Of a stretch of DNA of 64,000 nt, positions 42,019-47,590 are shown one piece after another. The stretch covers positions 66,424 through 130,423 of the forward strand of contig CAVRUT010000009.1 in the NCBI GenBank assembly GCA_963724465.1, written 5' to 3'. A model generated the notes under the pieces. The model worked only from the letters and a program-made list of their open reading frames with translations, had not been told where the DNA came from and ran no database searches. Each line of letters begins with the position of its first letter. Position 1 is the first letter of the stretch. The stretch comes from an uncultured Acidobacteriota bacterium. Lineage in GTDB: Bacteria; Acidobacteriota; Thermoanaerobaculia; UBA5066; Gp7-AA6. A program made the translations under genes and the position numbers.

Positions 42019-42093
42019 GATTGGTGCGTTCGGCTCATGCCGCGGCTTCGGGCGCGTGCTTACGATGAGAACGCGGCAGAAGGAGGAATGATT

Positions 42094-42483
42094 ATGGAGC
42101 CCCTTCAGATTCACTTTCTCGACATGCCCGGGTCGGAAGCCGTCGAGGCCAAGATCCGCGAACGCGTCGACCATCTCTCGCGCTTTTCCGCCGATATCGT
42201 GAAGTGCGAAGTCTGGGTCGCATCACCACATGGTCACCACCACAAGGGTGACGTTTACGGGGTGCGCATCCGCCTCACGGTGCCGGGCGAGGAGATCGAC
42301 ATCGACCTGCAACCAGAGGAGGATGACGTTTACATCGCCATCCGCGAGGCCTTCGACGCAGCGCGCCGCAAGCTAGAGGACTACGAGCGGCGGCGCCGCG
42401 GGACGGTCAAGGCCCACCCCCGCGGCGTGGAACGCGATCGGCCGAGGCGTCGCGAGGTCCCCGCGCGTGGCAAGCGCGCCTGA
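42094..42483 (+). CDS. HPF/RaiA-family ribosome-associated (hibernation) protein, short form
   Basis: RBS AAGGAGGAA, then MEPLQIHFLDMPGSEAVEAKIRERVDHL...VRIRLTVPG...IREAFDAARRKLEDY. Confidence 0.7.
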   Translation: MEPLQIHFLDMPGSEAVEAKIRERVDHLSRFSADIVKCEVWVASPHGHHHKGDVYGVRIRLTVPGEEIDIDLQPEEDDVYIAIREAFDAARRKLEDYERRRRGTVKAHPRGVERDRPRRREVPARGKRA

Positions 42484-45284: not shown

Positions 45285-46013
45285 TCAGCTCCCGCTCTCG
45301 TCCCGTGTTCCTGCGAACACCTCACGGACGTCTTCCGCCGAGCGGGCTTCCAGAAGCCTCCGGACCAACTCCTCCTTGTGAACGAGGTAGCTCAGCCGAG
45401 CCTCCCAGAGGAGCTGGATCGAGACTGTCTGGGTTAGCAGGATGAAGGCGATCCTTGGTCGGTGCTCGTAGGGGTCATGAAAGTCAACCGGTCCGAGGGC
45501 CCGAATCACCACGATCTGGTTCGACCCGAGCAGGCGTCTGCCCGCTTCCTTCGGATGCGGATACGCGACATCCGGATGGAACGCGGTGCTAGAAAGAGCT
45601 TCGCGCTCGAGGACGGACCGGCAGATCCGCTCGTTCGCCGTTTCAGCCCCGGCCGGTCCCGGGCCCTCAGCGAGCACGATGCGAGCGCGGCGAAAGGCAG
45701 CGCGGATGAGCTGCGCCGCATCGCGCTGGGGCGCGTCGAGGAAGACGTTCTGAACGTCCAGATAGGGATGAAGGCTGATCTCACAGCCCGGGTAACTGAC
45801 TGGCTCGGCCGGCATTTGCTCCACGGACCGGCGTCTCGCAATCCACTCTTCCAGATCGCTGACGCGCAGACGCCAGCGTCCATCCACGCGGACAGCGTGA
45901 AGTTCCCCCGATAGTCGCCGGACGGTCGTCGGAGAGAGCGAGAGATAGCGCACAGCGTCGGCGACCGACATCGTCTCCTCGGCGTCGAGCATCTCCTGCT
46001 CCTGCGAACCCAT
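45285..46013 (-). CDS. Excisionase-type HTH fused to a PTS EIIA-2 (PtsN-like) domain, copy 2
   Basis: N-terminus MSVADAVRYLSLSPTTVRRL...RLRVSDLEEWI. The EIIA-like core has the His loop VAYPHPK and FILLT...LLWEARLSYL. Its start is 1 nt after the upstream stop. Confidence 0.65.
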   Translation of the reverse strand: MGSQEQEMLDAEETMSVADAVRYLSLSPTTVRRLSGELHAVRVDGRWRLRVSDLEEWIARRRSVEQMPAEPVSYPGCEISLHPYLDVQNVFLDAPQRDAAQLIRAAFRRARIVLAEGPGPAGAETANERICRSVLEREALSSTAFHPDVAYPHPKEAGRRLLGSNQIVVIRALGPVDFHDPYEHRPRIAFILLTQTVSIQLLWEARLSYLVHKEELVRRLLEARSAEDVREVFAGTRDESGS

Positions 46014-46014
46014 T

Positions 46015-46371
46015 TCAGCGCGACTTTGTCGGGGGTGACGACCTGACCGGCTTGCGAGCTCGGCGGCTCATCGATGCGGTTTGCCTCGACGAGGGGCGCC
46101 TGGCTTGGTCGCCCGAGCGGGACGTCCGAGCCGAACCGGTGGCTTCATCAGCCGGCCTCGGGAGCGACAACTTCGTCTGGTCCTCGTGAAACAGCAGGCG
46201 GCCACAGTGTGGGCACCCGACAAGGCCCTCGTTCTGACGGATCAGTTGAAGAAGCCGAGGCAGGAGTCTGAGGTGGCAGCCACCACAGTGAGCGCCCTGA
46301 ACGTGTGCGATCGGGGATTGATCCGCCGCTCGATGGAGGCTGCCACTCTGCCGGGGAAACTCAGAAGCCAT
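46015..46371 (-). CDS. C4 zinc-ribbon protein (COG1579-type ribbon) with a basic tail
   Basis: CGGCHLRLLPRLLQLIRQNEGLVGCPHCGRLLF, followed by an Arg/Ser/Lys-rich tail. It is sandwiched between the two HTH-EIIA genes with 6-nt and 1-nt gaps. Confidence 0.6.
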   Translation of the reverse strand: MASEFPRQSGSLHRAADQSPIAHVQGAHCGGCHLRLLPRLLQLIRQNEGLVGCPHCGRLLFHEDQTKLSLPRPADEATGSARTSRSGDQARRPSSRQTASMSRRARKPVRSSPPTKSR

Positions 46372-46377
46372 GGTCCC

Positions 46378-47097
46378 TCAGTTGCCGACCCTTGCCGAGA
46401 GCTCCGGCTCCAGGATCCGCTCCGCTTGAATGAGTGACTCGTAAATCGCGGCGGTGTCCGCAGCCTCGAGCAGGTCCTTGACGGCGTGCTCACGAGCGAG
46501 CATTTGCGAGAGCTTGAAGAGCCAGGGCAGGTGCAGCTCTTCGTACTTGAGGCCCAACACGAAGAAGAGATGCGTCGGTTTTCCGTCGAGGGCGTCGAAT
46601 TCCACTCCCTCGAGCGACCGCCCGAGCACCATGAACGGTCGGACGATCTGCTCGGGATTGCGGCGCAGCGTGTGCAGGAAGGCGATGCCACCTCCGAATG
46701 CTCCCGGAAACACGTTTTCCCGTTGAATCAGAGCCCCCACGAACCAGGTCTTGTCGCGGACGAGTCCCAGGCGGTGCGCGAGCCCCGACAACTCTTCGAT
46801 CACCCCGTTCTTGGTCTGGGCGGTGAGCTCCGGGATGATGTGATCCGGCTGAAAGCAGGTCGAAAGACCCAGCATGCGCCGGGGCGAACCCTCCATCGGA
46901 GGTCCGCTGAGATAGCGGGGCAACACTCCCAGCATCTGGTCGTCCAGCCAGGTGTCGATCATTGCCTTTCGAAAACGCCATTGGCTGCCGACCTTCACGC
47001 CCGGAACGGTGCCGTCAGCCACCAGCTTCAAGGCGGTCCGCTCGTTAACGTTCAGGTAAGCAGCCAGTTGCTTCACAGTCATCAAGCGATCTTCCAT
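46378..47097 (-). CDS. Excisionase-type HTH fused to a PTS EIIA-2 (PtsN-like) domain, copy 1
   Basis: MTVKQLAAYLNVNERTALKLVADGTVPGVKVGSQWRFRKAMIDTWL. The EIIA-2 core is TKNGVIEELSGL...GGGIAFLHT...THLFFVLG...HLPWLFKLSQML. Confidence 0.75.
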   Translation of the reverse strand: MEDRLMTVKQLAAYLNVNERTALKLVADGTVPGVKVGSQWRFRKAMIDTWLDDQMLGVLPRYLSGPPMEGSPRRMLGLSTCFQPDHIIPELTAQTKNGVIEELSGLAHRLGLVRDKTWFVGALIQRENVFPGAFGGGIAFLHTLRRNPEQIVRPFMVLGRSLEGVEFDALDGKPTHLFFVLGLKYEELHLPWLFKLSQMLAREHAVKDLLEAADTAAIYESLIQAERILEPELSARVGN

Positions 47098-47124
47098 TCG
47101 TACCTCCAGCCTGATCCATCGCCG

Positions 47125-47153
47125 TTGACCTGAGGGCTATCGTGCTCTAAAAT
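47125..47153 (+). promoter_or_regulatory. Near-consensus sigma70 promoter (TTGACC-17 nt-TAAAAT)
   Basis: Exact hexamers and spacing seen in the AT-rich divergent region between 47097 (-) and 47177 (+). Confidence 0.5.
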
Positions 47154-47176
47154 ACGCCTTTCGTCAAGAGACGACG

Positions 47177-47590
47177 TTGTTTTACGTAAAACTACCTGTT
47201 GATACCCTGGAATACCATCCCGATATTGGTAGCCAGAGCCCGGTTCACGGGACGCCCGCTGAGGCGGAATTGAGGCAGCCGGGCGAGCCGAGAGGGTGGT
47301 GGTCTTCCGCAGGTTCGAGAATCTCTCTCGCGGGCTTCGGACTGAGCTTGCTCCTGCTGATGATCGAGTATTTGACCGCGGGCGGGTTCCCCGGCTGGTT
47401 CATCCTGGTTCCGAGTAACCCGACCACAATCCTGGCCGCTCTCGTTGGCCACAAGGTTGAGGCAGCCGTCGGCGCTCGGTGGTCGGACGAGGCCTTCTTC
47501 GCCACACTCGGCGTGGAATCGGCTCTCTGGTGGTATTTGGTCGGCGTCCTCGTCGTCGTAGTTCGCCGTCGCCGCGCCCACCAGAGGTAG
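47177..47590 (+). CDS. Small membrane protein, start uncertain
   Basis: Three hydrophobic segments (FGLSLLLLMIEYL, WFILVPSNPTTILAALV, LWWYLVGVLVVVV). It lies downstream of the promoter at 47125. Confidence 0.35.
   Translation: MFYVKLPVDTLEYHPDIGSQSPVHGTPAEAELRQPGEPRGWWSSAGSRISLAGFGLSLLLLMIEYLTAGGFPGWFILVPSNPTTILAALVGHKVEAAVGARWSDEAFFATLGVESALWWYLVGVLVVVVRRRRAHQR

Follow-up and report, generated by a model that had tools for sequence, protein, structure and literature searches.

A putative autoregulated HTH–EIIA operon with a phased operator in an uncultured Acidobacteriota bacterium

The window analysed here is a 64-kb stretch of DNA from an uncultured Acidobacteriota bacterium, and all coordinates are positions within it. 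It contains three consecutive genes, named A, B and C in order of transcription, and a divergent gene, c9, separated from A by a repeat array and two promoter-like sites (Table 1). A preliminary description of the locus had reported the three-gene layout, and the same open reading frames were found again on the minus strand, with gaps of 6 nt between A and B (TGA GGGACC ATG) and 1 nt between B and C (TGA A ATG). It had further proposed that translation is coupled through a ribosome-binding-like GAGGGA at the end of A. The tight gaps agree with coupling, as does the stop–start junction, which is conserved where B follows A, within one lineage of Acidobacteriota and a further clade; GAGGGA, however, ends just 2 nt before the ATG of B. 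The predicted coupling is better backed by the conserved junction than by canonical Shine–Dalgarno spacing. In the reading favored below, A, B and C would constitute one translationally coupled operon of transcription regulators.

Table 1. Features of the cassette and of the adjoining divergent region (positions within the 64-kb window)
Feature	Position	Strand	Description
Gene C	45285..46013	-	242 aa; HTH_17 + EIIA_2
Gene B	46015..46371	-	118 aa; C4 zinc ribbon + basic tail
Gene A	46378..47097	-	239 aa; HTH_17 + PTS_EIIA_2
P_c9, promoter-like site	47125..47153	+	TTGACC-17-TAAAAT; 10/12 consensus matches; reads toward the small membrane-protein gene
P_A, inferred promoter	47139..47167	-	from alignment with L001–L005; overlaps P_c9 back to back
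Operator array	47147..47217		direct repeats (A/G/C)GTA(A/G)TTYT, exact 10-bp period
c9, small membrane protein, divergent	47177..47590	+	syntenic with A in L001, L003–L005 and L007

Profile searches upheld the fusion of a helix-turn-helix (HTH) to an EIIA-2 domain in both A and C. With a Pfam cut-off of 27 bits for each family (PF12728 and PF00359), A matched HTH_17 (3.6e-13, 50 bits) and PTS_EIIA_2 (1.4e-24, 87.1 bits), and C matched the same two (3.1e-11, 43.8 bits, and 3.6e-12, 46.9 bits); no PRD or EIIB-like domain was found in either by Pfam. The two proteins had been called paralogous. They share their architecture, but their identity is only ~19%, which makes them distant subfamilies and not close paralogues. 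The A subfamily is 63–92% identical among orthologues in 74 loci from at least six phyla, whereas C, marked by the motif HPxVA(F/Y)PHP(R/K)(D/E), was found only in Thermoanaerobaculia-labelled loci. In the AlphaFold model of A (pLDDT 84), a winged HTH_17 (residues 1–55, with a helix-helix-hairpin-helix arrangement over residues 8–55) is joined by a disordered linker of about 20 residues (58–71) to an EIIA-Ntr-like domain (78–237). The model matches the IIA-Ntr and IIA-Mtl structures 1a6j, 1a3a and 2a0j with target TM-scores of 0.83–0.88, and for the PtsN structures, 3URR/4GQX included, the Foldseek target TM-scores are 0.8–0.86.

The active site is likewise retained. The histidines of IAFLHT in A and VAYPHP in C, proposed earlier as phosphorylatable, align with the phospho-His of the PtsN structures 1a6j and 2a0j, and the upstream Arg-Glu pair is present in both proteins; in A the signature reads Arg126-Glu127...His142 (GGGIAFLHT). 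Across 78 sequences R126 never varies, while E127 and H142 each reach at least 90% conservation, and the histidine is kept in 101 of the 103 collected family members. The usual EIIA-2 loop is AxPH; that of A is AFLH, with leucine in place of the proline before the histidine.

Two groups of characterized proteins come close to this architecture. With PtsN/EIIA-Ntr (E. coli 1A6J, N. meningitidis 2A0J, Burkholderia 3URR/4GQX), A and C share the EIIA-2 fold, the active-site Arg-Glu, the position of the phospho-His, the regulatory, non-transport character and a matching EI/HPr relay in the genome. To our knowledge PtsN consists of a single domain (about 160 aa), is encoded in the rpoN operon and acts through protein–protein contacts only, whereas A and C carry an N-terminal DNA-binding domain, are located elsewhere and have an operator of their own, and A differs in its AFLH loop. 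Neither is a PtsN orthologue by the TIGR01419/PRK10896 profile (42 bits for A and 22.6 bits for C against a cut-off of 138.7); the genome's true ptsN lies on contig C1, beside rpoN, hpf and hprK. The Firmicutes PRD activators MtlR, LicR and ManR also combine DNA binding and a PTS_EIIA_2 domain in one polypeptide, and in them PTS phosphorylation acts directly on transcription. They are proteins of 600–700 aa with a DeoR/Mga-type HTH, two PRDs and EIIB-like and EIIA-Mtl-like domains, and they act on sugar-PTS operons; A and C, in contrast, have an excisionase-type HTH and no sugar-PTS linkage. A third group, known from database annotation, consists of the D-type HTH_17–EIIA regulators that head Hyf/Ehr-like operons. 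These have the same two-domain architecture and conserved histidine, but their identity to A or C is only about 22%, and their loop is the canonical GxGIAIPH. D-type genes adjoin A in many loci and directly follow C in the closest relatives. No GGACAT arrays were seen in the loci, and GGACA/TGTCC repeats were not evident upstream of their D genes. Literature searches on HTH_17/EIIA fusions returned no paper describing the architecture or the family.

Judged by its predicted structure, B is a stand-alone C4 zinc ribbon of the HP0958/CT398 type. It matched Pfam Zn_ribbon_9 at 35 bits (cut-off 29.1), and its ordered core (about residues 20–65, preceded by ~20 disordered residues) superposes on the ribbons of 3na7 and 4ilo with an rmsd of 0.9–1.3 Å (Foldseek); over 44 columns and with 5Y05 included, the range is 0.9–1.5 Å. 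The four cysteines of CGGC...CPHC (C29, C32, C53 and C56) fit the family pattern CxxC-X18-26-CxxC and are invariant in 23 homologues, and the C-terminal tail is Arg/Ser-rich, basic and disordered. The characterized COG1579 proteins HP0958 (3NA7), CT398/CdsZ (4ILO) and MSMEG_4306 (5Y05) share this zinc-ribbon domain, but are about 240 aa long and bear a 130-Å coiled coil that binds sigma-54. That long N-terminal coiled coil is entirely absent from B, which instead has the basic tail and belongs solely to the A operon; the NCBIfam CdsZ profile scored 29.4 bits (cut-off 275) over profile positions 192–238 only. B is a shortened form of a 150–195-aa protein that comes after A in related lineages, where no more than about 65 helical residues are left in the long form. 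The genome has, in addition, an ordinary full-length COG1579 gene. The coiled coil of HP0958/CT398 binds sigma-54, and the HP0958 zinc-ribbon domain binds flaA mRNA and partner proteins (PMC5947703). The zinc-ribbon call in the preliminary description stands, while the nucleic-acid binding attributed to B there is putative, by analogy with HP0958.

Between A and c9, the direct repeats are arranged around two overlapping promoters. Four to five array units lie upstream of the -35 box of P_A and one lies inside the promoter spacer, and the array contains a 16-bp palindrome, AGTTTTACGTAAAACT. The strong divergent promoter noted earlier, P_c9, is genuine as a consensus match. P_A escaped the consensus scan; its boxes are TTGACG (-35, 47162–47167) and CACGAT (-10, 47139–47144), the latter weak in the window and better in relatives (CAGTAT, TAGTAT), and the Shine–Dalgarno sequence of A is GGAGGT at 47102–47107. 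c9 gave no family match. Since its conserved part begins near codon 26–47, the true start probably lies downstream of the annotated one, near 47270.

The array is linked exclusively to A-family genes. A GTA-N7 pattern of four units occurs once in the window and in none of 100 shuffles. A genes are almost everywhere preceded by two to five direct repeats ACGTA(A/G)TTYT with a period of exactly 10 bp, which overlie two promoters placed back to back, and the same array stands upstream of A orthologues from other phyla. CGTA pairs spaced by exactly 10 nt number 32 in the 74 upstream regions of 250 nt, against 39 in all 668 kb of loci. Chains of GTA at a 10-nt period with at least two units were found in 56 of the 74 upstream regions and 70 of 1480 shuffles, and chains of at least three units in 18 regions and no shuffle. 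With a position weight matrix (PWM), 120 of 145 hits fell within 300 nt upstream of A, most others being upstream of paralogue genes, and 29 of 46 loci left out of matrix building were also hit. We considered a global regulon and rejected it: PWM hits of at least 20 bits in the organism's own 3.0-Mb assembly occur only at 47168–47199, in the A/c9 intergenic region, and the strict repeat pattern in the genomes of seven relatives falls almost exclusively at A-family loci. Because matches are confined essentially to these loci, the regulator is local, not global. We infer that A itself is the protein that binds the array; some other factor could do so, though nothing else co-varies with it.

Two known DNA-binding systems offer precedents for this arrangement. 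The excisionase-type winged helix (PF12728, TIGR01764) is that of lambda Xis, which binds X1-X1.5-X2 cooperatively in a head-to-tail manner, and the phased repeats at A suggest a similar mode. The layout at A/c9, in which divergent promoters overlap and one repeat unit sits in the spacer, recalls merR/merT. The cassette differs from both in having no recombinase partner, MerR coiled-coil dimerization helix or metal-binding domain, its effector domain being EIIA.

An excisionase-type HTH also raises the question of whether A and C are part of a mobile element or of a phage-defense system, as HTH proteins of the MAD1 type in a MADS-like or island-borne module at a tmRNA integration hot spot. A tmRNA gene lies 6.5 kb from the cassette, the GC content of the cassette region (0.59–0.67) is slightly below that of its flanks, and A has weak MAD1 matches in NCBIfam (56.9 bits) and PADLOC (21.6 bits). 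The MAD1 match, however, spans only the 49-aa HTH and falls under the NCBIfam cut-off of 80 bits, and PADLOC gave no hit for B, C or neighboring genes. No integrase or other MADS gene is adjacent, and no recombinase ORF was found in 42–51 kb. Orthologues of A occupy stable metabolic contexts (PEPCK, Hyf/Ehr-like, SulP) across many phyla, and the A tree groups largely by phylum. As PADLOC and NCBIfam show only a sub-threshold HTH match, we rejected this origin, which we regard as highly improbable. The profile searches and the recurrence of the trio bear out the earlier view of the cassette as a regulatory module.

HPr and EI genes are absent from the window, in line with the earlier remark that none is nearby; both are on contig C1, which carries rpoN-hpf-ptsN-hprK-EIIA-Man-HPr-EI, a regulatory PTS. 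The description of the switch as self-contained fails on this point, since this system can supply the phosphoryl group. Among the 35 other A-carrying genomes, HPr is present in 34 and EI in 33, a co-occurrence that does not discriminate, because EI and HPr are common in these phyla; an A-like gene was found in just 3 of 201 genomes of a phylum sample. Given the retained active site, the input of the cassette is probably phosphorylation of the EIIA histidine by HPr~P, with transfer predicted for both A and C.

Alternatively, the EIIA-like domains may go unphosphorylated and act as ligand- or protein-binding sensor and oligomerization domains, with a binding pocket formed by His, Arg and Glu. 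In that case the cassette would remain an autoregulated transcription switch, but one that works independently of the PTS. The leucine in the A loop, where EIIA-2 proteins have proline, fits this possibility, as do extra paralogues in which arginine replaces the histidine (L045, L061), and unphosphorylated PtsN also works through protein–protein contacts. Two A-carrying metagenome-assembled genomes (MAGs) point the same way: HPr and EI are both missing from G012, and G028 lacks EI and carries only part of HPr, at the end of a contig. As MAGs, however, these two may simply be incomplete, and EI and HPr accompany A in the organism's own genome and in nearly all other carriers. The full Arg-Glu...His signature is, moreover, retained in three subfamilies across wide divergence. 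We consider a PTS-independent sensor rather doubtful.

We favor a locally autoregulated transcription-factor cassette with a conserved operator and an input through the EIIA domain, to which, taken as a whole and including the coupled operon, we assign a probability of about 0.55. In this model A would bind the ACGTA array by means of its winged, excisionase-type HTH, and the bound form would probably be a head-to-tail oligomer. The array covers both back-to-back promoters, A's own and that of c9, and binding would allow A to autoregulate the operon and control c9; we infer the sign of this regulation, as we do the roles of B and C. The EIIA-Ntr-like domain of A would serve as the signal input, His142, together with Arg126 and Glu127, being phosphorylated by HPr~P from the EI–HPr relay encoded elsewhere in the genome, and promoter occupancy would then track the PEP/pyruvate (carbon/energy) state. 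As a diverged paralogue, C shares the input domain of A but not its HTH, and may add a second layer by competing for HPr~P, partnering with A or binding a related site. B would be made in fixed proportion to A and could be an accessory factor that associates with A or with nucleic acid.

The three genes had been presented as a cassette, and the trio does recur, in L001–L007 and L082, but in its exact form it is restricted to a single small clade. What is conserved widely is A by itself, together with its operator; the A-B pair is conserved in one lineage, and C is lineage-specific. In the closest relatives the trio usually heads a longer cluster, A-B-C-D followed by genes for a complex-I-like (Hyf/Ehr-like) membrane complex, with the order A-B-C-D-Proton_antipo_M-NADHdh in L003, L005, L006 and L082. 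In the window, synteny with relatives stops immediately after C, and no remnants of D or of the membrane complex were found downstream of C by tblastx or elsewhere in the assembly by tblastn. The cassette may be an orphaned remnant in this genome, where just the regulatory head and c9 remain. A stronger form of this idea holds that rearrangement near the tmRNA-linked island removed the downstream part, leaving a relic with little or no function beyond regulation of itself and c9. All three ORFs are nevertheless intact, their residues, junctions and operator are conserved, L001, L002 and L007 likewise have A-B-C without an adjacent D, and the assembly is only 64% complete, so that the complex may sit on missing DNA. 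We judge this relic reading unlikely; it addresses the present role of the genes and not their mechanism, and is compatible with the favored autoregulated cassette.

Over 70 loci, the genes around A show enrichment for the PEP/pyruvate node and energy-converting complexes, including Proton_antipo_M, NADHdh, GTP-PEPCK (13 loci), LutB, acetate kinase, phosphoketolase and PFOR, and in other phyla A precedes PEP carboxykinase. A more far-reaching proposal, which we hold tentatively and at clearly lower confidence than the cassette model itself, is that A-type HTH–EIIA proteins form a conserved and so far undescribed transcriptional output that the regulatory PTS controls directly in many non-enteric phyla. 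Phosphorylation of His142 by HPr~P would set cooperative assembly on the 10-bp-phased ACGTA repeats, yielding a feedback switch that senses PEP and, elsewhere, drives PEP carboxykinase and Hyf/Ehr-like complexes; in this lineage it would have been extended to a three-protein device, with B binding A stoichiometrically and C tuning or splitting the phosphoryl flux. The characterized EIIA-Ntr outputs known to us are all protein–protein contacts (Trk, KdpD, PhoR, SpoT and others), and the only EIIA-bearing transcription factors under PTS control that we know of are the large PRD proteins of Firmicutes. The cassette looks like an uncharacterized connection through which the regulatory sugar-phosphotransferase system reaches transcription directly. 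A minimal fusion of EIIA to a DNA-binding domain with a cross-phylum operator would, if confirmed, be the simplest possible wiring from PEP/pyruvate to a promoter, and in relatives would help to explain how PEP carboxykinase and the still puzzling Hyf/Ehr-like complexes are controlled in Acidobacteriota, Myxococcota, Planctomycetota and Binatota. A dedicated mini zinc ribbon would also give the poorly understood COG1579 family a new context. The 70-bp operator, the single histidine and the set of three proteins provide testable handles.

Some loci also place A beside DabA or SulP, which had suggested a regulator of inorganic carbon (CO2/bicarbonate). With two and four loci, respectively, these neighbors are minor beside Proton_antipo_M, NADHdh and PEPCK, and inorganic carbon was dropped as the main theme.

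Genes A, B and C follow one another head to tail, all on the minus strand, with a 6-nt gap at the A/B junction (AAC TGA GGGACC ATG) and a 1-nt gap at the B/C junction (CGC TGA A ATG). Pfam profiles assign HTH_17 and PTS_EIIA_2 domains to both A (3.6e-13 and 1.4e-24) and C (3.1e-11 and 3.6e-12), and Zn_ribbon_9 to B (35 bits vs a cut-off of 29.1). The preliminary description of this trio proved correct, since ORFs, junctions, Pfam domains and structure alignments and models all agree with it, and we regard the domain architecture and operon structure as close to certain; the one correction is that A and C share only ~19% identity. NCBIfam matches on the trio are all sub-threshold (PtsN, FruA-IIA, excisionase, MAD1, and the C-terminal 47 positions of CdsZ), so that a mobile or defence module, at which the MAD1 and excisionase hits might hint, is poorly supported.

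Features of the cassette, its surroundings and related loci (L, loci in other genomes; C1, contig of the same assembly)
Feature	Location	Strand	Details
Gene A	46378-47097	-	239 aa
Gene B	46015-46371	-	118 aa
Gene C	45285-46013	-	242 aa
ACGTA array	47147-47217		towards A: GGTATTCCAG GGTATCAACA GGTAGTTTTA CGTAAAACAA CGTCGTCTCT TGACGAAAGG CGTATTTTAG
P_c9, promoter-like site	47125-47153	+	near-consensus TTGACC-17-TAAAAT; scan; reads towards c9
P_A, inferred promoter		-	-35 TTGACG, -10 CACGAT; alignment; back-to-back overlap with P_c9
c9 ORF	47177-47590	+	divergent small membrane protein
Second HPF/RaiA-type gene	42037-42483		Ribosomal_S30AE
Recurring ~35-nt segment	44779-44818		C-SDR intergenic
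Regulatory PTS cluster	C1:334500-342600		lptB-rpoN-hpf-ptsN-hprK-...-EIIA(Man)-HPr-EI
A-like paralogue	L045:1259-1969		AFLRALR
A-like paralogue	L061:4166-4870		AFPRPLQ
NuoB-like/PFOR ORF	L075:8635-10479		acidobacterial relative
A-B-C-D locus	L082:2046-8106		A-B-C-D-Proton_antipo_M-NADHdh

The upstream regions (250 nt) of A orthologues are otherwise unalignable across phyla, yet share direct repeats of ACGTA(A/G)TTYT with an exact 10-bp period, usually flanked by two inverted -35-like boxes (TTGACA ... TGTCAA). CGTA pairs at a spacing of 10 occurred 32 times in the 18.5 kb upstream of A vs 39 times in all 668 kb, with spacings of 20, 30 and 40 enriched too; GTA chains of 10-nt period with at least two units were present in 56/74 upstream regions vs 4.7% of shuffles, and chains of at least three units in 18 of the 74 vs 0/1480 shuffles. 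A 22-nt position weight matrix (PWM), built with 46 loci left out, gave 145 hits, of which 120 lay no more than 300 nt upstream of A, including hits at 29 of the 46 omitted loci; the other hits mostly preceded paralogues of the C-like or D-type groups. The four-unit GTA pattern between A and c9 occurs once in the 64-kb window (0 in 100 shuffles), and PWM hits of at least 20 bits in the 3.0-Mb assembly fall at this array only. The strict two-unit pattern in seven relatives' genomes is likewise almost confined to A-family loci, which points to autoregulation within a local circuit rather than to a global regulon.

Because A alone co-varies with the array across phyla, we propose that A binds it, autoregulating the operon along with c9, with a probability of roughly 0.7. 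Cooperative, head-to-tail binding of the kind known from lambda Xis would suit such phased direct repeats. One repeat unit occupies the spacer of the inferred P_A, with the others upstream of its -35 box. Synteny of c9 with A holds in L001, L003-L005 and L007, and its product matched neither a Pfam nor a PADLOC family. In relatives the initial 30-45 codons of its ORF, which overlap the array, are unconserved; the true start probably lies downstream, e.g., at a TTG near 47270 preceded by GAGG.

The AlphaFold model of A (pLDDT 84) comprises a winged helix (8-55), a disordered linker (58-71) and an EIIA domain, with IIA-Ntr and IIA-Mtl as its closest PDB matches (target TM-score 0.83-0.88). The histidines of A (GGGIAFLHT) and C (DVAYPHP) align with the IIA-Ntr active-site histidine in the solved structures 1a6j and 2a0j, and these EIIA domains display both the fold and the active site of the EIIA-2 family. 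Clustering of all HTH-EIIA proteins of the collected loci yielded three subfamilies: A-type, with the loop G-N-G-x-A-F-L-H-T; C-type (H-P-x-V-A-F/Y-P-H-P), found at acidobacterial loci only and 45-86% identical; and D-type (G-x-G-I-A-I-P-H), the first gene of operons with Proton_antipo_M, NADHdh and HyfE-like subunits. The histidine is kept in 101/103 members. Across the three types R126 never varies, and conservation of E127 and H142 is 90% or higher. Arginine replaces the phospho-site histidine in extra A-like paralogues at L045 and L061, which may be naturally "locked" forms.

The regulatory PTS cluster on contig C1 of this MAG (64% complete) holds the assembly's sole HPr, sole EI and sole other EIIA_2 gene; a phosphoryl donor for His142 therefore exists, though distant from the cassette. 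Among 35 other A-carrying genomes, 34 encode HPr and 33 EI, a distribution compatible with phosphorylation and not discriminating. We hold the odds to be about even that HPr-dependent phosphorylation of His142 exerts control; the EIIA-like domain may instead be a non-phosphorylated sensor. The cassette would represent a variant kind of PTS-controlled transcription regulator. The EIIA domains of A and C are not PtsN orthologues, and MtlR/LicR-type regulators carry PRD and EIIB domains, whereas A and C have neither. A literature search found no paper on HTH_17-EIIA fusions; new here are the A subfamily definition, its ACGTA operator, the putative dedicated zinc-ribbon partner and the C subfamily.

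In a search sample of one genome per species, A orthologues (63-92% identical) are encoded at 74 loci of MAGs labeled Acidobacteriota/Thermoanaerobaculia, Planctomycetota, Myxococcota, Binatota, Gemmatimonadota, Chloroflexota and Eisenbacteria, and group largely by phylum in the A tree. A is rare: among 201 high-quality genomes sampled from the window's phylum, 3 have matches at E <= 1e-40, the two others among them showing just 36-40% identity. A large protein collection holds ~1000 clusters at 90% identity, throughout under generic names; in databases HTH_17-EIIA fusions are called "excisionase family DNA binding protein" or "PTS sugar transporter subunit IIA".

By tblastn over the loci, the full A-B-C order is confined to L001-L007; it recurs on the independently annotated contig L082, whose gene calls match our own. 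L082 is an NCBI MAG contig labeled Syntrophomonadaceae, with a B 59% identical to that of the window; the label probably reflects an acidobacterial contig that was misbinned or given the wrong taxonomy. Most other Thermoanaerobaculia-labeled loci and two of another clade (L026, L032) carry A-B without an intervening C, often with a C-type gene divergent and upstream. In these lineages B spans 150-195 aa, including ~65 N-terminal helical residues resembling the COG1579 coiled-coil end, a part lost in the trio clade. The A-B junction TGA-GGRACN-ATG is kept in most of the trio clade, except in L082, where B starts at a GTG overlapping the A stop; the gap is 3 nt in the clade with long-form B, and the B-C junction is kept as TGA-N-ATG.

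The four cysteines of B are invariant in 23 homologues. Its model contains a single ordered element (residues ~20-65), which superposes on the HP0958, CT398 and MSMEG_4306 zinc ribbons at 0.9-1.5 Å, and a disordered 50-residue Arg/Ser-rich tail. B has the COG1579 zinc ribbon without the coiled coil, which in HP0958-type proteins binds sigma-54. A full-length COG1579 gene stands on the minus strand of contig C14 (ORF of ~287 codons; long coiled coil and CSAC...CDSC zinc ribbon), which makes B an extra copy dedicated to the A operon. Binding of RNA or partners by the HP0958 ribbon is the sole precedent for a role of B (PMC5947703), and a stoichiometric partnership with A is a tentative proposal, held less likely than not.

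Genes flanking the HTH-EIIA block at ~70 loci encode Proton_antipo_M (34 proteins), NADHdh (14), GTP-dependent PEP carboxykinase (PEPCK; directly downstream of A at 13 loci), LutB/LUD, SulP and pentapeptide proteins (4 each), and phosphoketolase, acetate kinase, DabA and Fe-ADH (2 each); one extended locus reads ackA / A-D-HyfB-HyfC-HyfF-NuoD-like-NuoB-like-PFOR. This recurrent theme of the PEP/pyruvate node and energy-converting complexes fits a regulator with PEP-driven relay input. With PEPCK directly behind it, A would complete a feedback loop on PEP. C would be a second-layer regulator. At L075, a NuoB-like small subunit of a Hyf/Ehr-like cluster and an N-terminal pyruvate:ferredoxin oxidoreductase domain share one ORF, either a true fusion or a frameshift artefact of long-read assembly.

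In the window's own genome, PEPCK, energy-complex and other tallied targets are not adjacent to the cassette, D and the matching membrane complex are absent from the assembly, and synteny with relatives stops directly after C; a rival reading is that the trio is an orphaned remnant of a larger cluster. A distance of 3 kb separates the cassette from the second HPF/RaiA-type gene, which is additional to the hpf in the rpoN cluster. Copies of the ~35-nt segment downstream of C, 85-93% identical, are present on contigs C1, C3, C7, C9, C14 and C16 of this genome; the segment resembles a dispersed intergenic repeat of the REP kind.
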